A stretch of 64,000 nt of DNA from an uncultured Thermoplasmatales archaeon (GTDB lineage: Archaea > Thermoplasmatota > E2 > DHVEG-1): contig CAZFFN010000086.1 in NCBI GenBank assembly GCA_964518165.1, positions 6,408 through 70,407 on the forward strand. The letters run 5' to 3'. Each line of letters opens with the position of its first letter. Positions within the stretch are counted from its first letter, which is position 1. Positions 23,420 through 30,407 of this stretch are shown here, one piece after another. The notes beneath the pieces were generated by a model that was not told where the DNA came from, ran no database searches, and worked only from the letters and a program-made list of their open reading frames with translations. A program made the translations under genes and the position numbers.

Positions 23420-23693
23420 AGCTTTAGTGTATAAATATTTGATATATAAAAGTGGGCTTAGCCTAACTAAATATATATTACAGAAAGAATTACTTTGGGT
23501 TAAAAAACGAATTTATGACAAAGATAAAGATCTGTGGGTTTCACTTTACAAATAATAAATAGAAATCCATCATTTAACTAGAATAGTTTGATTTGTATTA
23601 TTGCAGATATTTAATATAAATAAATTAATTAATACTTTTAATTACCTCTCTTGACAAACTATTTATAATATATTCGTTGATTTAAAAAATGAG

Positions 23694-24536
23694 ATGTTAA
23701 TTAACAGACAAAAGTGTCTATACTACTTTATTAAAAGGATAAATGAATGTTCAAAATTAAACTTAGCAAAAATATTTTTTACAATATCAAAAGAAAGTAA
23801 CATAAATCAAAATTTCAAATTTTACAATTTTTTACCCTATAAATTTGGACCATATTCATTTGAACTTTTTCATGACCTTGAAAAATTAGAAGAAGAAAAA
23901 ATTATAAAAACAGATGAAAAACAAATAAAATTTTTAGGTGAAAATAATAAAATACAAATCCCAGAAACAATATCTAATAAAGTAGATCATTTCATAAAGA
24001 ATTTTTCAGAAATGAATGAAGATGAATTAATAAAATATGTTTACAATCGTTATCCTGAATATACAATTTTCAGTAAAATCGAAAAAAGGAAAAAATATCT
24101 TCGAGATCAAAAAGGTATTTATACAATAGGATACGAAGGAAAATCAATAGATGAATTTTTGAATGAACTAATACAAAATAAGATTGAATATCTTATTGAT
24201 GTTAGAAAAAATCCATGGAGTATGAAATTTGGATATAAAAAATATCAATTAAAATCATTAACTAACAAAATTAACATAAAATACAAAAACATGCCGGAAT
24301 TAGGTATACTAAGTGAAAAAAGAAAGGACCTTGATAGCAAGGATGATTACAAGAAATTACTTGGAGAATACTCTAAAAATTTAATACAGAAGAATAATGA
24401 AATAAATTTTTTGAAAAAATTAGCTGAAAAACGTAAAACAGCATTGATGTGCTTTGAAAAAAACCCAGAGATGTGTCATCGGAGAATCCTTGGTGAAAAA
24501 TTGATGGATCTTGGAGCCGAGGTGACGCTTAATTAA
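23694..24536 (+). CDS. DUF488-family protein fused to N-terminal SocA/Panacea(DUF4065)-like domain
   Basis: YKFGPYSFEL in the N-domain; IYTIGYEG, LIDVR, LMCFE..P..CHR in the C-domain. Confidence 0.85.
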   Translation: MLINRQKCLYYFIKRINECSKLNLAKIFFTISKESNINQNFKFYNFLPYKFGPYSFELFHDLEKLEEEKIIKTDEKQIKFLGENNKIQIPETISNKVDHFIKNFSEMNEDELIKYVYNRYPEYTIFSKIEKRKKYLRDQKGIYTIGYEGKSIDEFLNELIQNKIEYLIDVRKNPWSMKFGYKKYQLKSLTNKINIKYKNMPELGILSEKRKDLDSKDDYKKLLGEYSKNLIQKNNEINFLKKLAEKRKTALMCFEKNPEMCHRRILGEKLMDLGAEVTLN

Positions 24537-25305
24537 TTGGGAAAAAAAGAAGGTAACAGTCATAACAAAAGCCTATCCTGAAAAAAGTAGAAAACATGGT
24601 ACTGTAGCATGTACAGCAGGAATTACAGATGATAATAAACTTATACGTATGTATCCAATAGATATGAGACATTTTACAGGAAAAAATAAGATATCAAAAT
24701 TTGATGTTTTAGAAGTCGAATGCAAAAAGGATAATGATAAGTTAGGCAGGAAAGAAAGTTATAAAGTAAGATCAAATACAATCAAACTTCTAAACAAAGA
24801 TCTAAGCAAACCAAAACCTAAATGGAAAGAGAGAAATCAAGTTATTTTACCTAGTTTATCAAATTCTATTCAAGAATTAAAAGATTTATATGAAGAAGAT
24901 AAAACTTCTATGGGAATTATCAAACCAACAGATTTAATAGATTTTATTAAAACAGATAAATTAGAACTTTTTGAAAAGGAAGGTTGGTCATTTACTAAAA
25001 CATTAGACGGAAGAAGAATTCCGAATGTAACCAAGATGCCACATATTTTTAAATATAAATTCAAATGTAAATGTTGCCAGGATAAAATACATGAAATGCA
25101 GTGCGAAGATTGGGAGCTTTTTGAGTCTTATAGAAGTTGGGGAAAAAGATACAAAGACCCTATAATTCTTTGGGATAAACTATATTATAGATTTTACGAA
25201 TGGATGAAAGAAAAACGTAATCTCTATTTGATTATGGGTATGTATTCACAATATCCTACTTGGTTTATTATTGGGTTATACTATCCTCCTAAAAATTTAA
25301 TATGA
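24532..25305 (+). CDS. Conserved hypothetical partner of DUF488; frame extends 5' of the ATG at 24649
   Basis: In-frame WEKKKVTVITKAYPEKSRKHGTVACTAG upstream of 24649; CKCC, EDWE, IIGLYYPPK. Confidence 0.75.
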   Translation: MNWEKKKVTVITKAYPEKSRKHGTVACTAGITDDNKLIRMYPIDMRHFTGKNKISKFDVLEVECKKDNDKLGRKESYKVRSNTIKLLNKDLSKPKPKWKERNQVILPSLSNSIQELKDLYEEDKTSMGIIKPTDLIDFIKTDKLELFEKEGWSFTKTLDGRRIPNVTKMPHIFKYKFKCKCCQDKIHEMQCEDWELFESYRSWGKRYKDPIILWDKLYYRFYEWMKEKRNLYLIMGMYSQYPTWFIIGLYYPPKNLI

Positions 25306-25528
25306 ATTCTAATTCCAAAAAAATTAATTTTTAATTTAGGAATACTTTTACTAATTTCTACAGGATTTTTATAATTAAAGAAATTCTTTCAAATTTTACA
25401 AAATAATCAAAAAATTATATTATTAACTTTAATGACCACTATAGCGCTGAAACACTCTATTAGCCTGGTGTCATGATAGAATGAGTATTATATCCTCAAG
25501 AGAGAATTGAGAATCAATTTGTTATAAA

Positions 25529-25714
25529 GAAAAAGGAAAAATTACTAATAAAGAATATCAAAATGTTTGTAACATTTCAGATAGAACAGCCACTCGGGAA
25601 TTGTCAGATCTTGTCTCTAAAAAGATCGTGAAGAAAATAGGAACAACTGGAAGAGGAACCTCATATATTTTAAGACGTCATAATGCCGACAAAGACGCCA
25701 AAAAGAAGCCATAA
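25529..25714 (+). pseudogene. Remnant C-terminal wHTH of a RecG-C/Schlafen(AlbA_2)-type protein
   Basis: EKGKITNKEYQNVCNISDRTATRELSDLVSKKIVKKIGTTGRGTSY; no start codon, upstream sequence degraded. Confidence 0.65.
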
Positions 25715-25784
25715 TGGCGCCTAATTTGGATTAAATTATTTTTAGAAATTTCCCTAAAAAATTATTTATATTTAGAAATAATAA

Positions 25785-25857
25785 TGGGCTTAGCCGGATT
25801 TGAACCGGCGAACTTCGCCATGTGAAGGCGACGTCATAACCACTAGACCATAAGCCC
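25785..25857 (-). tRNA. tRNA-Val(CAC)
   Basis: GGGCTTA/TAAGCCC acceptor stem; TCGCC-TTCACAT-GGCGA anticodon arm; GGTTCAAATCC. Confidence 0.97.
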
Positions 25858-25996
25858 AAGAAAACAACTATTTCAACTAAATATGATGAATATGTTAAAA
25901 CATTTTCGAAAAAATACCTAAAAAAACAATCTTTTTTAGAAAAAATTTATCAACTAATAGGGTGTTTATATTTTTGTAATAAATAATTTATTATTA

Positions 25997-26563
25997 ATGG
26001 GGGCGTCAAATTATATGTCACTTTTAGACATTTTCAAGAAAAACAAAAATGAAAAAAAAGAAGAACAAAACAAAGAAATGCAAGTAGAAGAAAAACAGGT
26101 AGCTGAAGAGCCCGTAGAAACAGAAGTAATTGCTGAATACAATGAAACACTAGAAACCACTTCAAAAAATAAAAAATCACAAAAAAAAGTAACTCCAAAA
26201 GATGAATACATATGGCGAGATGTAGATGCCATTGAAGAAAACATAGATAACCTACATATAAAAACTGCAAAAAAACCATCAAATAAACTAGATAAAAAAG
26301 TAGACACTATTATAGAAAAAACAAAAAAGAAACATATTAGAAAACCATCAAATGTAATCTATGTTGTAAGTAAACCTCAACCAGGACAAGTTCGAGGTGA
26401 CTGGGCTGTAAGAGGACATAAAAAGATATACAGCCATCATCGTAAAAAGGAAAACGCTATAAAAAACGCTAGGGAAATAGCAAAAAAAAGAGACGCAACT
26501 GTTATGGTACAAAATACTGATGGTACATTCAGTGATGGATTCAAACCAAGATCAAAAAAATAA
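25997..26563 (+). CDS. DUF2188-like domain protein with long charged N-terminal region
   Basis: GDWAVRG...AIKNAREIAKKRDATVMVQNTDG. Confidence 0.75.
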   Translation: MGASNYMSLLDIFKKNKNEKKEEQNKEMQVEEKQVAEEPVETEVIAEYNETLETTSKNKKSQKKVTPKDEYIWRDVDAIEENIDNLHIKTAKKPSNKLDKKVDTIIEKTKKKHIRKPSNVIYVVSKPQPGQVRGDWAVRGHKKIYSHHRKKENAIKNAREIAKKRDATVMVQNTDGTFSDGFKPRSKK

Positions 26564-26585
26564 TTTTTTTTTTATTTGTGTTTAA

Positions 26586-27104
26586 ATGACAGCGGTTCTA
26601 AGAATAGGTCATAGAATACCTAGAGACAAAAGAATAACAACACATGTAGCACTCGTAGCCCGTGCTTTTGGTGCAGATAAGATATATATAGATAAAAAAG
26701 ACAAAAAAATCGAAGAAACAATACGCTCAACATGTGAACGTTTTGGAAAAGGTTTTAAAATAGAAACAGGTGTTAATCCAAGAAAAATAATTAAAGAATG
26801 GAAAGGGATTGTAGTACATCTCACAATGTATGGAGAAAAATTAGATACATTTATTGAAAAAAATGTTGATGAAGATATATTAGTAATAGTTGGTGCAGAA
26901 AAAGTACCTTTTGAAATATATGAACTAGCCCATTACAATATATCAATTGGAAACCAGCCACATTCTGAAGTAGCAGCATTAGCAATTTTTCTAGACAGAA
27001 TCAAAAAAGGAGAATGGGTAAACAAAGAATTTTTTGGAAAAATGAAAATATTACCTAGTAATTCAGTAAAGAAAGTAATATCTGAGGACCAAGTACATGA
27101 ATAG
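26586..27104 (+). CDS. trm56: tRNA (cytidine-56-2'-O)-methyltransferase aTrm56
   Basis: LRIGHR..RDKRITTHVALVARAFGA, VHLTMYG, IGNQPHSEVAALA. Confidence 0.96.
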   Translation: MTAVLRIGHRIPRDKRITTHVALVARAFGADKIYIDKKDKKIEETIRSTCERFGKGFKIETGVNPRKIIKEWKGIVVHLTMYGEKLDTFIEKNVDEDILVIVGAEKVPFEIYELAHYNISIGNQPHSEVAALAIFLDRIKKGEWVNKEFFGKMKILPSNSVKKVISEDQVHE

Positions 27105-27618
27105 GATTCCTACATCTAGTGAATGCATAGAATACTTAAAAAAAGCAGGATGCTCAAATGCTGTAATAGAACACTGCAAAGCAGTTAGAGACTATGCAGT
27201 AAGAATTGCAGAAAAGGCTGATGCAGATATAGAACTAGTAAATGCAGGAGCTCTTTTACATGATATAGGTAGATCAAAGACACATAGTATAAATCATGTG
27301 CTTGAAGGTGTAAGAATCGCTAAGAAATTTGGGCTTTCTGAAAAAGTAATTAGAATAATTGAAAGACATATTGGAGCAGGAATAACTAGCGAGGAAGCAG
27401 AAAAACTAGGTCTACCTCCTAACAACTATATTCCGGTGACTCTTGAGGAAAAAATAGTCTGTCATGCTGATAACTTGATTCAACGTGGTAGAAAACAAAG
27501 TGTTGAAAAGGAAGTTAAAAAGGCTCTAAAGAAAGGAAACAAAGAGTTTGCCACACGCTTAGTTGATCTGCATAAAGAACTAAGTAATATCTGTGGAATA
27601 GATATAAGTGATATCTAG
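27097..27618 (+). CDS. HD-domain phosphohydrolase (TIGR00295-like)
   Basis: ALLHDIGRS, RHIGAG, EEKIVCHADN. Confidence 0.9.
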   Translation: MNRIPTSSECIEYLKKAGCSNAVIEHCKAVRDYAVRIAEKADADIELVNAGALLHDIGRSKTHSINHVLEGVRIAKKFGLSEKVIRIIERHIGAGITSEEAEKLGLPPNNYIPVTLEEKIVCHADNLIQRGRKQSVEKEVKKALKKGNKEFATRLVDLHKELSNICGIDISDI

Positions 27619-27803
27619 TCTTACAGTACATCCGAATGTAAAAAAATGAGAAAGAAAACAGATTTATAAGAAGTAAAAATACTCTTAGAACAATCACTTT
27701 TAAAGGTTTTATCTTTATTTTTCTGAGAAAGAATAGTATTTTTCTCATTTTTACTAAGTTTTACATCAAAAACAGGTGATATTTCAGTATAAATCATCTA
27801 TTG

Positions 27804-28115
27804 TTATTGATATCCTTTTCCTCGAATAAAAAACATAGTAAGTATTATGGTTTTATTTGTTTCATCTATCTCATATACTAATCTATATTTTCCTAATCTT
27901 AATCGATATACTGATTCTTTTTTTGGAGATATAAGTTTTATATCCAGTTTTGGGTGTTTCTTATGAGGATCAATCTTTAATTCATCAATAACTGTCTGAA
28001 TATTTGACAATACTGATTTATCTCCACTCTTTAGAATTTTTTTAACATCTTTTAAAAAATTTTTACCTTGAATGATTTTATAAGAATTTGATTTTTTATT
28101 TAGTCCCGATTTACC
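27804..28115 (-). CDS. RelE/ParE-family toxin (start codon unclear)
   Basis: YKIIQGKNFLKDVKK N-terminus upstream of TTG 28010; YRLRLGKYRLVYEID. Confidence 0.85.
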   Translation of the reverse strand, partial: GKSGLNKKSNSYKIIQGKNFLKDVKKILKSGDKSVLSNIQTVIDELKIDPHKKHPKLDIKLISPKKESVYRLRLGKYRLVYEIDETNKTIILTMFFIRGKGYQ

Positions 28116-28352
28116 TCAAGCATCTTTTAATGCATCTTCTATATCATCAGACTCAACATAATCTCCGGCTTTAATTTTTTGCATCCTTTTTTTATGTTCC
28201 TTGAGAACATGATTATAAAATTTCTTTTCTTCAATTTGACTCATAAATTCATTGATGAGGTCATCAAAACTCATGTTGCCATGTTTATAAAGAACAAGTT
28301 TTTCATATGTTTTAGATGTAACATTAATTGTTTTATAATTCATAGTTACCAT
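28116..28352 (-). CDS. Antitoxin, RHH-like N-terminus
   Basis: KTINVTSKTYEKL...SFDDLI; directly upstream of the toxin. Confidence 0.8.
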   Translation of the reverse strand: MVTMNYKTINVTSKTYEKLVLYKHGNMSFDDLINEFMSQIEEKKFYNHVLKEHKKRMQKIKAGDYVESDDIEDALKDA

Positions 28353-28377
28353 AACTACTATAGTTATAATAACTATA
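28343..28377. promoter_or_regulatory. Operator-like array of alternating TAGTTA/TAACTA half-sites over the antitoxin start
   Basis: Half-sites at 28343, 28352, 28361 and 28370; 19-bp palindrome at 28359-28377. Confidence 0.6.
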
Positions 28378-28555
28378 AATATTTTTCTATGAATATACCC
28401 GTTTTATCAGTTTTTATCTTTATTTTTCTGAGAAAGAAGGCAGGTAAAATAGAAGAGGTTTCTGAGAAATTTGGAATATTGCTTGATTTAAAAACATTTG
28501 AACCAGAAAAGATAAATATAGTATTGTTTATTTTGCATCTCCTCAAAAGACACAT

Positions 28556-28640
28556 GCAGGGGTAGCCAAGCCTGGCCAACGGCGCAAGGTTGAGGGCCTT
28601 GTCCTGTAGAGGTCCGCGAGTTCAAATCTCGTCCCCTGCA
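28556..28640 (+). tRNA. tRNA-Leu(GAG)
   Basis: GCAGGGG/CCCCTGC acceptor; CAAGG-TTGAGGG-CCTTG; long variable arm; GAGTTCAAATCTC. Confidence 0.97.
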
Positions 28641-28789
28641 TTTTTTATTAATTCAAATTTTTATAAAACTATCAAACCCTAATTTTAAAGGAAAATGTTT
28701 TAAAATTGTCTACATTAACTGACAGAAAATACATATTATTGTCGACTACAATAGAAACACTTATAAATATAAACAAAATACTTATATTT

Positions 28790-30070
28790 ATGCTTGAAGA
28801 AGCAATAAGAAAATGGAATCCTTGGTGGGCAGATGCTGAATCAATAGAAAAACTTTCAGGTGTTAAAAGACACAAAACAAGTAATATAAAAGACACTCTT
28901 GAATTAAAGCAGATAAAAGATGTAATAGGAGTTAGAAGATCAGGTAAAACAACTATTCTATATCAAATTATAAAAATTTTAGAAGAAAAAAAAATAAGTC
29001 CAAAAAATATAGTTTTTTTAAACTTTGATGATACCGAGATAAATGCTGCTCCATTTGATGAAATTATTAAAGCTATTGAAAAAATAAATCCAGAGATTAA
29101 CTATCTTTTTTTAGATGAAATACAACAAAAAAAGGAGTGGGAGAGATGGATAAGGACACTTTATGATACAAATAAATTTAAACAAGTGTTTGTCTCAGGC
29201 TCCTCTGCATCTCTTCTTTCAAAAGATATTGGAAGAGTTTTAACTGGGAGGCATATAACATTTACAGTTTTTCCTTTTTCATTTAAGGAATATTTGGTAT
29301 TTCTTGGTTGGGATGATTTTTCAAAAGATTTTTTAGAATATAATAAAAATAAAATCCTACATCATTTAAGCACCTATATCAAAGGAGGCGGATTTCCTGA
29401 AACAATTGGTAAAGATGAATATCAAAGAAAAATTATTCTCACAAATATTTATAATGATATTCTTTCAAGAGATATTTCTGCTAGATATAACGTTTCATAT
29501 GATATTACAAGAAAAATAAGTTATCATTTGTTAAGCAATAATGGTAAAGAATTTTCTTATAGAAGTATTGCTAATGCAGTAGATGTAAGTGTTGAAACAG
29601 TCGAAAAATATTTAGAATATCTCAAAGAATCTTTTATTATATTAACACTAAATGTTTTTTCATATAAAACCAAAGTTCAATTTAAACAAAATAAAAAAAG
29701 TTATAGTATTGATACCGGTCTTAGAAACGCTGTTTCTTTTAGATTTACAAAAGACTTAGGTAGACTTGCAGAAAATATTGTTTTTTTGGAACTTTTAAGA
29801 AGAGGAAAAGATGTATTCTTCTGGAAAGACAAAAAAAATCATGAAGTTGATTTTGTAATAAAAGAAGGATTAAAACCGGCTAATTTAATTCAGGTCTGTT
29901 GGGATATTAAAAAAGAAAAAACAAAAAAACGAGAAATAGATGGTTTACTATCTGCTATGGATACTTTTAACATTAAAAAAGGTATAATTCTTACTGAAGA
30001 TTATGAAGAAATTATCAGACACAATAAAAAAACAATCAAATATATACCTATTTGGAAATGGTTATTATAA
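28790..30070 (+). CDS. AAA_14 + DUF4143 ATP-binding protein
   Basis: GVRRSGKT, FLDEIQ, SGSS, GGFPE, YSIDTGLR, HEVDFV. Confidence 0.93.
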   Translation: MLEEAIRKWNPWWADAESIEKLSGVKRHKTSNIKDTLELKQIKDVIGVRRSGKTTILYQIIKILEEKKISPKNIVFLNFDDTEINAAPFDEIIKAIEKINPEINYLFLDEIQQKKEWERWIRTLYDTNKFKQVFVSGSSASLLSKDIGRVLTGRHITFTVFPFSFKEYLVFLGWDDFSKDFLEYNKNKILHHLSTYIKGGGFPETIGKDEYQRKIILTNIYNDILSRDISARYNVSYDITRKISYHLLSNNGKEFSYRSIANAVDVSVETVEKYLEYLKESFIILTLNVFSYKTKVQFKQNKKSYSIDTGLRNAVSFRFTKDLGRLAENIVFLELLRRGKDVFFWKDKKNHEVDFVIKEGLKPANLIQVCWDIKKEKTKKREIDGLLSAMDTFNIKKGIILTEDYEEIIRHNKKTIKYIPIWKWLL

Positions 30071-30156
30071 AGATATAATAAATATAGTAAATATGGTATA
30101 TGTATATATACAAATTGATGTTGTTACTCCTTTGGAAGTTGTCGATTATAAATAAC

Positions 30157-30276
30157 TTGAAAAATAATTCATTAAAATGGATTCATAAAATAAGAGAAGA
30201 ACACTATAAAAAAACAAAAGATAAAAATTTGAAGGATATTATTAAAGATAGTGTAAAAAAGGCGAAAACTTCTTAA
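30157..30276 (+). CDS. 39-aa basic small ORF (MKNNSLKWIHKIREEHYKKTK...)
   Basis: TTG start, helical pattern, follows a PIN-like C-terminal remnant. Confidence 0.4.
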   Translation: MKNNSLKWIHKIREEHYKKTKDKNLKDIIKDSVKKAKTS

Positions 30277-30407
30277 ATTTTGCATTTTTAATAACTGAAT
30301 TGATATTTTTAGCTAAAAACTTACAACAGAAGAATATCATATTATTTTAAAGATAAAAGTAATTTTAAATTTTGTCCCCTGCATTTTTTATTAATTAAAG
30401 AATAAAA

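Follow-up and report, generated by a model that had tools for sequence, protein, structure and literature searches.

The archaeal metagenome-assembled genome (MAG) G000 (2.31 Mb in 168 contigs, 30.6% GC) carries three small repeat-bounded islets of accessory genes, here called U1, U2 and U3, in the 64-kb stretch of its contig C86 that was analysed as a whole (the window, C86:6408–70407; positions given without a contig name are those of the window). An initial annotation had taken the three for cassettes of one distributed system served by a recombinase acting in trans. We think it quite probable that they have different origins: an eroded integrase element (U1), a toxin–antitoxin (TA) insertion with a local duplication (U2), and a cassette of a family-wide, integrase-less kind found behind tRNA-Leu genes (U3). 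They do not form one distributed system. U1 and U2 are of ordinary kinds; U3 is a member of what is apparently an unpublished variant of tRNA-anchored cassette accretion. The related records are titled as Thermoplasmata or Thermoplasmatales MAGs.

A conserved block with two landing sites

Read from the left, the region holds DnaJ, Hsp20, an unnamed 156-aa gene (unk156), U1 and tRNA-Val(cac) on the minus strand, followed by DUF2188, Trm56, HD, U2, tRNA-Leu(gag) on the plus strand, U3, NikR and ZnuABC. The block from tRNA-Val through DUF2188, Trm56 and HD to tRNA-Leu is kept across the family, with both tRNA 3′ ends pointing outward into variable DNA. Pfam identifies the genes between the units as DUF2188, Trm56 and HD, all core genes, and the two tRNAs are the only matches in an Rfam scan of the region:

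25784–25858, minus strand: tRNA-Val(cac), the integration target of U1 (ARAGORN; Rfam, 69 bits)
28555–28641, plus strand: tRNA-Leu(gag), the head of the array, with its core at 28620–28640 (ARAGORN; Rfam; core scan)

By Pfam, the cargo of the islets consists of a DUF488 protein with a weak Panacea-like N-terminus, an unnamed 218-aa protein, a ParE-like toxin with a VapB-type antitoxin, and an ATPase with AAA_14 and DUF4143 domains. The three direct-repeat pairs on which the initial annotation was built are all present where it had placed them. Its claim that the 64 kb hold no recombinase stands for intact genes, with zero matches on contig C86 to six families (PF00589, PF00239, PF01548, PF01797, PF07282 and PF01609), but not for gene remnants, as U1 contains a pseudogenised integrase stump. 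Compared at orthologous sites, the cargo is partly variable: all three units are absent or different in some relatives, and U1 and U3 have homologues in the related genome G002, which belongs to the same genus. We propose that both outward-facing tRNAs of the conserved block act as landing sites, and that three separate events at this block would have left three different things.

An eroded integrase element at tRNA-Val(cac)

The repeat that bounds U1, TGGGCTTAGCC at 23453–23463 and 25785–25795, corresponds to the final 11 nt of tRNA-Val(cac). These two copies are the only ones in the 2.31-Mb genome, whereas by composition 0.13 copies would be expected genome-wide and 4e-4 within 15 kb, and in the orthologous islet of G002 the distal copy of the tRNA-Val end extends to 14 nt. 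The site is empty in G004, in which tRNA-Val lies 36 nt from unk156, and holds other cargo in G009. The features of the islet are the following:

23453–23463, minus strand: distal att remnant that repeats the final 11 nt of tRNA-Val(cac) (two genome copies only), 34 nt from the start of unk156
23694–24536, plus strand: cargo gene 1, a 280-aa DUF488 protein with a weak SocA/Panacea-like N-terminus (PF04343, E 6.9e-27)
24649–25305, plus strand: cargo gene 2, an unnamed 218-aa protein whose gene invariably accompanies that of the DUF488 protein (no Pfam match)
25291–25528, plus strand: integrase stump, comprising the promoter region and the first ~34 codons of a tyrosine integrase of the C87/C114 type, with an in-frame stop (nucleotide similarity, tblastn)
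25532–25714, plus strand: orphan C-terminal winged helix-turn-helix (wHTH) gene fragment of 60 codons, joined to the stump (weak PF22168, E 2.9e-4; absent from the G002 ortholog)

U1 is an eroded tRNA-integrated element of the tyrosine-integrase type, and the stump is what identifies it. Region 25291–25528 has 66–68% nucleotide identity to C87:1478–1715 and C114:1–200, which are the promoter and start of two integrases encoded elsewhere in G000. When 25454–25528 is translated, 15 of 25 residues are identical to residues 10–34 of the C87 integrase (tblastn, E 0.002–0.004, with an in-frame stop), and the G002 ortholog keeps a longer stump, corresponding to integrase residues 10–66, with stops and a frameshift (E 3e-9). 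Position and orientation are those expected for an integrase adjoining a tRNA and reading toward tRNA-Val, although only a pseudogene is left. In a related strain represented by contigs of the salt-lake runs X3 and X4, 25322 is joined to 25785 and the stump is gone entirely. The initial annotation had itself named the alternative that the islets might be eroded remnants of integrase-bearing elements, and this is the case of U1: the stump is found in both G000 and G002, and tRNA-Val(cac) is adjoined by integrase genes or pseudogenes in G005, G021 and the GTDB locus L218. An element with a tyrosine integrase would have entered the 3′ end of tRNA-Val, its integrase being later deleted to the stump of ~34 codons.

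The cargo has had a more recent history of its own. Amino acid identity between G000 and G002 is 93% for the DUF488 protein and 95% for the 218-aa protein (92% to G093 for the latter), with synonymous divergence (dS) of 0.24 and 0.07, respectively, against 0.73–1.40 for five core genes. The ratio of nonsynonymous to synonymous divergence (dN/dS) is 0.13–0.26 for the cargo; the dN/dS of DUF2188 is an alignment artefact and was disregarded. The ~95%-identical block shared by the two genomes spans only ~23570–25330, the remaining islet being ~75–80% identical. The same pair of genes is found 2.5 kb from tRNA-Pro(ggg) in G093 (89% nucleotide identity) and 110 nt from tRNA-Arg(tct) in G122. The low dS, the limits of the block and its copies at other tRNAs point to the two-gene block as a recently exchanged unit that moves between tRNA-linked islands. 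The DUF488 gene and its partner would be held under purifying selection while being exchanged between lineages.

A toxin–antitoxin insertion with a local duplication

The U2 repeats, at 27704–27733 and 28409–28438, agree exactly over 27 nt and, with one mismatch, over 30 nt. In contrast to what the initial annotation had assumed, they are not the boundaries of the unit. In five relatives (G002, G003, G004, G006 and G017), the HD stop codon is followed within ~7 nt by ACCAGAAAA(A/G)ATAAATA and then by tRNA-Leu, and these empty sites place both repeats inside the insertion, 85 nt and ~58 nt from its ends, with which they do not coincide. The blastn gap against G002 runs from 27604 to 28506. The parts of U2 are these:

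27619–28496, no strand: ~880-bp insertion, specific to G000, that separates the HD stop codon from the conserved tRNA-Leu promoter (empty sites in relatives)
27704–27733, no strand: repeat copy 1, with the palindrome TTTCTGAGAAA at 27720–27730 (repeat search)
27804–28115, minus strand: ParE/RelE-like toxin frame, open from the antitoxin stop (PF05016, E 5.9e-7 on a 68-aa TTG form)
28116–28352, minus strand: VapB-type antitoxin, 78 aa (PF02697, E 1.9e-6)
28409–28438, no strand: repeat copy 2, in the TA promoter region, with the same palindrome at 28425–28435 and 28459–28469 (repeat search)

Homologues of the TA pair (78–88% nucleotide identity) occur at other loci in at least 20 family genomes. 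Neither the U2 repeat nor a tRNA-Leu core was found around the nine homologous pairs that were fetched, which argues for the repeat being a local duplication and not an att site. In G002, a conserved 34-nt motif directly adjoins the sequence that in G000 comes after repeat copy 1; from this arrangement, G000 appears to have ~70 extra nt, in which a piece of its promoter/operator is present for a second time, with the junction at TGAGAAAGAA. In a strain of run X3, 27734–27803 is replaced by 12 nt, beginning exactly at the right edge of repeat copy 1. The palindrome, with one occurrence in each repeat copy and a further one in the promoter, would fit a putative operator. We think that a widespread TA module of the ParE/VapB type was inserted between HD and the tRNA-Leu promoter, and that the supposed direct repeat is probably a second copy of the module's own promoter/operator piece, joined at that microhomology inside the insertion. 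As a lineage-specific internal duplication, it does not make U2 part of a cassette system.

As a type II TA module, U2 has an adjacent small antitoxin and toxin with family matches, and lacks an intact toxin gene with a start codon. ATG, GTG and TTG are all absent from the 35 codons after the antitoxin stop, so that no start occurs before codon 36, and the TTG form matches only profile positions 31–80 of PF05016, without the N-terminal third of the fold. The toxin frame (27804–28118 on the minus strand) is in frame with the antitoxin, with one TGA between them. The toxin may be inactive, or it may be made by readthrough or reinitiation.

Two further sequences in U2 were observed elsewhere. The 34-nt motif, AGTACATCCGAATGTAAAAAAATG(A/C)(G/C)AAAGAA, occurs at 27624–27656 of the window, at C114:9444, C120:51957 and C167:68, and in dozens of family genomes, with 91–100% identity across genera; it often stands just past a gene end, has a complementary TTCGGAA arm before two of its copies and gave no Rfam match. 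At the right end of U2, a ~60-nt piece (28442–28510) has matches of 81–91% identity in many family genomes and at C120:61248–61316. As it reads as coding (...EEVSEKFGILLD...), U2 seems to carry a stray gene fragment.

The cases of U1 and U2 bear directly on the idea of a single distributed system whose cassettes, U1, U2 and U3 alike, are moved by one trans-acting recombinase. That none of the units has an intact recombinase, that all three carry accessory, defence or TA-type genes, and that some relatives lack each unit, or have a different one, at the orthologous site would all agree with it. However, there is an integrase stump in U1; the U2 repeats are not derived from a tRNA, lie inside the insertion and are absent from other copies of the TA pair; the conserved end-module described below is found in U3 only; and the att cores come from different tRNAs, while the integrase family is specific to single tRNAs. 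With the idea already contradicted for U1 and U2, we consider it very unlikely. The part of it that survives is the trans-acting recombinase with distributed cassettes as applied to U3, which is integrase-less, ends in a conserved module, occurs in several genera and belongs to family-wide arrays.

A cassette behind tRNA-Leu(gag)

The U3 repeat, 21 exact nt (32 of 36) at 28621–28656 and 30364–30399, is the 3′ end of tRNA-Leu(gag) plus 13 nt downstream. It delimits a true integrase-less cassette:

28642–30383, plus strand: U3, a single integrase-less tRNA-Leu cassette (homology to G002 from the tRNA to the distal core, where it ends)
28790–30070, plus strand: cargo, an ATPase of 426 aa with AAA_14 and DUF4143 domains (Pfam, E 1.2e-34 and 8.9e-25)
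30324–30383, plus strand: decayed end-module with CAACAG..., AAAGATAAAAG in place of the palindrome TTTTACCGGTAAAA, and a core copy at 30363–30383 matching in 17 of 21 nt (alignment with the intact modules of G002, L083, L084 and G020)

No recombinase or integrase remnant was found within U3. Its ATPase has 94% amino acid identity to that of G002 (dS 0.22, dN/dS 0.13) and 90% to that of G092, which is of another genus; at the nucleotide level, the identity to G002 is ~93–95% over the ATPase gene and 80–90% over the rest. The distal core copy of G002 is a perfect 23-mer (23/23), and the homology ends at this copy, the flank beyond being unrelated.

The same AAA_14 cassette changes its place from one genome to another. 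It stands directly behind tRNA-Leu(gag) in G092 and second in the array in L083, a metagenome contig; in G010 and L085 the end-module of another cassette comes before it, and in L084 it has modules on both sides. Across genera, the protein is 83–94% identical, against 60–75% for core genes. The orthologous tRNA-Leu is followed in G004 by three module-bounded units, a MazF TA pair among them, which end before NikR, and in G020 by three cassettes with perfect cores; the cargo of these arrays differs from that of U3. From 28646 onward, tRNA-Leu(gag) is continued by several different sequences in the public runs X1 and X2, and one contig joins 28646 to 28775. This joint would be a variant of the AAA_14 cassette with a shorter leader, and the alternatives at 28646 suggest that co-occurring populations carry other cassettes there.

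Family-wide arrays behind tRNA-Leu genes

The tRNA-Leu 3′ 21-mer (with at most two mismatches) is found in 107 of 108 family genomes, with up to 35 copies per genome, 28 in G000 and more than 1,000 in total; a reversed-pattern control gave 0. Just 5′ of each core copy there is an end-module, formed by CAACAG-AGAAAAC, a T-run and the short palindrome TTTTACCGGTAAAA, of which a compensated variant TTTCACCGGTGAAA exists. Intact modules were recognised in G002, L083, L084, G020 and G004, and a decayed one, still recognisable, in G000 (30324–30362). The head of an array is a tRNA-Leu gene, with HD/Trm56 or tRNA-His as upstream neighbours; in G043, a genome of 7 contigs, four tRNA-Leu genes (gag, cag, taa and caa) have arrays behind them.

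Cassettes are mostly 0.55–1.8 kb in size, with intact genes. In G000, between the two cores of pairs spaced by 0.65–1.6 kb, there are genes for a beta-lactamase-fold protein, membrane proteins, VapBC, ParE with an antitoxin, and a PsbP-like protein, and only the junctions of ~85–125 nt are common among these units. An attC-like hairpin was considered for the module and ruled out: eight modules folded as single-stranded DNA gave minimum free energies of −4 to −8.5 kcal/mol with z-scores from −1.6 to +1.4.

From these arrays, a family-wide system can be proposed in which small, recombinase-less cassettes, mostly of one gene, stack behind tRNA-Leu genes, each closing with the conserved module and a copy of the last 21–24 nt of the tRNA. 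The cassettes would excise and integrate by site-specific recombination within the core, the recombinase being encoded elsewhere. It is possible, and we suggest it tentatively, that the tRNA-Leu arrays are an archaeal functional analogue of the integron: every tRNA-Leu tail would serve for docking, the ~60-nt end-module plus tail copy would be the recombination site, and a recombinase outside the cassettes, different from any sampled tRNA-linked integrase, would shuffle one-gene cassettes within and between Thermoplasmata genomes.

Two other explanations have to be weighed at this point. The first is that the tRNA-Leu cassettes, U3 included, each arose by separate decay of a full integrase-bearing element, and are immobile and similar to cis-mobilizable elements (CIMEs), so that their spread would be due to the transfer of intact parents. 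Such a decay is indeed seen at this locus in U1, many integrases of the family have internal stops, and the integrase-bearing element of contig C168 has, ~20 nt from its distal core, the sequence AACAGGAGAAAAC as the modules do. However, at least seven genomes or contigs, with differing array positions, carry this one minimal AAA_14 cassette, which has the same ends in each and lacks any integrase remnant; the cassettes keep intact genes at their small sizes; and for more than 1,000 core copies not one sampled integrase sits at a tRNA-Leu. We find pure erosion an unlikely origin for U3.

The second is homologous recombination after uptake of DNA from relatives, with tRNA genes and their flanks as anchors and without a site-specific enzyme. 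The U1 gene pair speaks for it, with its ~95% identity between G000 and G002 inside an otherwise ~75–80% identical islet and its presence in islands at other tRNAs, as allelic or modular replacement predicts. It does not suit U3, whose right flank is wholly different in G000 (NikR-Znu) and G002, leaving the 21–36-nt core as the only anchor, nor the shifts of cassettes in array position with junctions always at the core. As a general explanation, homologous recombination seems to us hardly probable.

Integrases of the genome and the search for the enzyme

The catalogue of tRNA-end duplications and the list of tyrosine recombinases that the initial annotation had proposed as checks were both drawn up for the whole of G000. 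Words from tRNAs are repeated nearby 19 times downstream and six times upstream, and all 13–21-nt matches comprising the tRNA 3′ end belong to the downstream set, at Ala-cgc, Thr-tgt, Arg-ccg, Arg-tct and Leu-gag. Three integrase-less islets were noted among these sites, bounded by 13–16-nt copies of tRNA 3′ ends: at Ala-cgc (C80:8224–10506), with a wHTH protein and a DUF6036 nucleotidyltransferase; at Thr-tgt (C86:72019–75316, outside the window), with an alanine racemase-VanY fusion and DUF1611; and at Arg-ccg (C99:22202–23544), with a YgjP-like peptidase.

The recombinase list comprises five large integrases (422–501 aa) and a shorter sixth match to PF00589. All five large genes (C22, C87, C96, C114 and C168; loci L052–L056) are directed toward a tRNA gene, and their 3′ ends overlap the 3′ part of this target tRNA on the opposite strand. 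The complement of the tRNA T-arm thus codes for a conserved RRDLNP-like tail at the C-terminus of the integrase. This tRNA-linked family is present in 74 of the 108 genomes, often with internal stops, and 54 of 60 sampled integrase gene ends adjoin a tRNA gene, of ~20 kinds. No relatives of the family were found in IMG/VR. The distal arm of the integrase-bearing C168 element at tRNA-Arg(tct) carries AACAGGAGAAAAC in the way the cassette modules do, which hints at a shared arm site.

An IS110-family element was also observed at C25:1–1410 (325-aa DEDD transposase, PF01548, E 1.8e-19). It has several copies, which break the assembly, and copies of its two ends lie at the ends of contigs C120, C56, C131, C44 and C158. 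Its right end adjoins a tRNA-Leu core in three places (C25:1384, C44:81 and C158:10729), so it seemingly targets the cassette cores, and can be likened to IS1111-type elements, which target the attC sites of integrons. As mover of the cassettes it was ruled out, since IS110-type insertion makes no repeats of 21 nt or more; the element looks like a guest at the tRNA-Leu cores.

Several points weigh against the interpretation that we prefer, in which U1 is an eroded element, U2 a duplicated TA insertion and U3 a cassette mobilised in trans. A recombinase specific for tRNA-Leu was not found: a tRNA gene is adjoined by 54 of 60 sampled integrase ends and by 24 of 31 GTDB loci, the latter overlapping in part with the sample of 60 ends, and none of these tRNAs is a tRNA-Leu. 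We infer trans-mobilisation of the tRNA-Leu cassettes because their junctions are shared and cassette-precise and because the cassette has spread recently. A circle of U3 or an empty site (joint 28641>30385) was not seen among the joints listed, for which public runs were available as contigs only, so that this is not evidence of absence. The end-module of U3 in G000 is decayed (17/21 in the core, palindrome lost), and this copy may now be immobile. As regards a CIME label, U3 retains att sites, and neither a parent element nor an integrase remnant was found for it. In U1, the ~95%-identical block shared with G002 stops short of the att copies, so the recent exchange of this cargo would not have proceeded by att recombination. 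The duplication history given for U2 is a reconstruction from one genome.

Significance of the locus

To our knowledge, no gene-transfer machinery has been studied experimentally in the uncultured Thermoplasmata of sediments. The locus presents two routes of gene gain side by side, namely, an integrase element that lands at a tRNA and then decays, and integrase-less cassettes behind tRNA-Leu. The second route, which recurs behind tRNA-Leu genes, has apparently moved intact genes between genera after their divergence. If the enzyme were found, this would give a testable archaeal model of gene capture that parallels integrons, with a compact docking site (tRNA tail plus module) open to direct assay. 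There is also a warning for annotation, as the description "repeat-bounded and integrase-less" spans at least three different histories.

Comparison with known systems

No publication on tRNA-Leu-tail cassettes with a dedicated end-module was found, and a literature search directed at the lineage was likewise empty. Elements of several known kinds come near to them. Archaeal elements with tRNA-targeting tyrosine integrases enter at tRNA 3′ ends with duplication of the end, and form arrays by re-use of one att site (PMC6563490; SNJ2-type, PMC5861418). To this kind belong U1 and the five elements of G000 that have integrases. It is defined by its integrase, which cassettes of the U3 type lack.

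In the CIMEs and the tandem accretion described for ICESt1/ICESt3 of Streptococcus, the integration genes are lost and attL and attR are kept, elements stand in tandem at the 3′ end of the target, and a related integrase can mobilise them (PMC5704250). U1 would be a decayed element of this sort, and U3 behaves like a CIME. However, CIMEs each derive from known integrative and conjugative elements (ICEs) or integrative and mobilizable elements (IMEs), whereas no parent element or integrase was found for the tRNA-Leu cassettes. These are also very small, mostly of one gene, occupy up to 35 sites per genome and have a dedicated end-module common to all.

The tycheposons of Prochlorococcus form hypervariable islands anchored at tRNAs, in which tandem elements are split only by a partial tRNA copy and degenerate remnants are found with fragmented integrases and scattered partial tRNAs (bioRxiv 10.1101/2020.12.28.424599). 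They differ in that each brings a tyrosine or serine recombinase of its own, frequently together with replication genes, and that there are one or two per genome; the archaeal tRNA-Leu units carry neither.

Integron cassettes, including those in archaeal MAGs, form arrays of small, mostly single-gene and promoter-poor units that each end in a conserved recombination site; their cargo is rich in TA pairs and unknown proteins, and integrase-less clusters (CALINs) are common (PMC9668308). The tRNA-Leu arrays resemble them in these features. However, the conserved site at the cassette end does not have the form of an attC hairpin, the arrays start from the 3′ end of a tRNA-Leu gene where an integron has attI beside intI, and a gene of the IntI type was not found. 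The archaeal integron paper mentions no tRNA-based sites (PMC9668308). CIMEs, tycheposons, arrays formed by re-use of att sites and integrons are thus the nearest known kinds, and none of them describes cassettes that stack on the tail of tRNA-Leu genes with a dedicated end-module.

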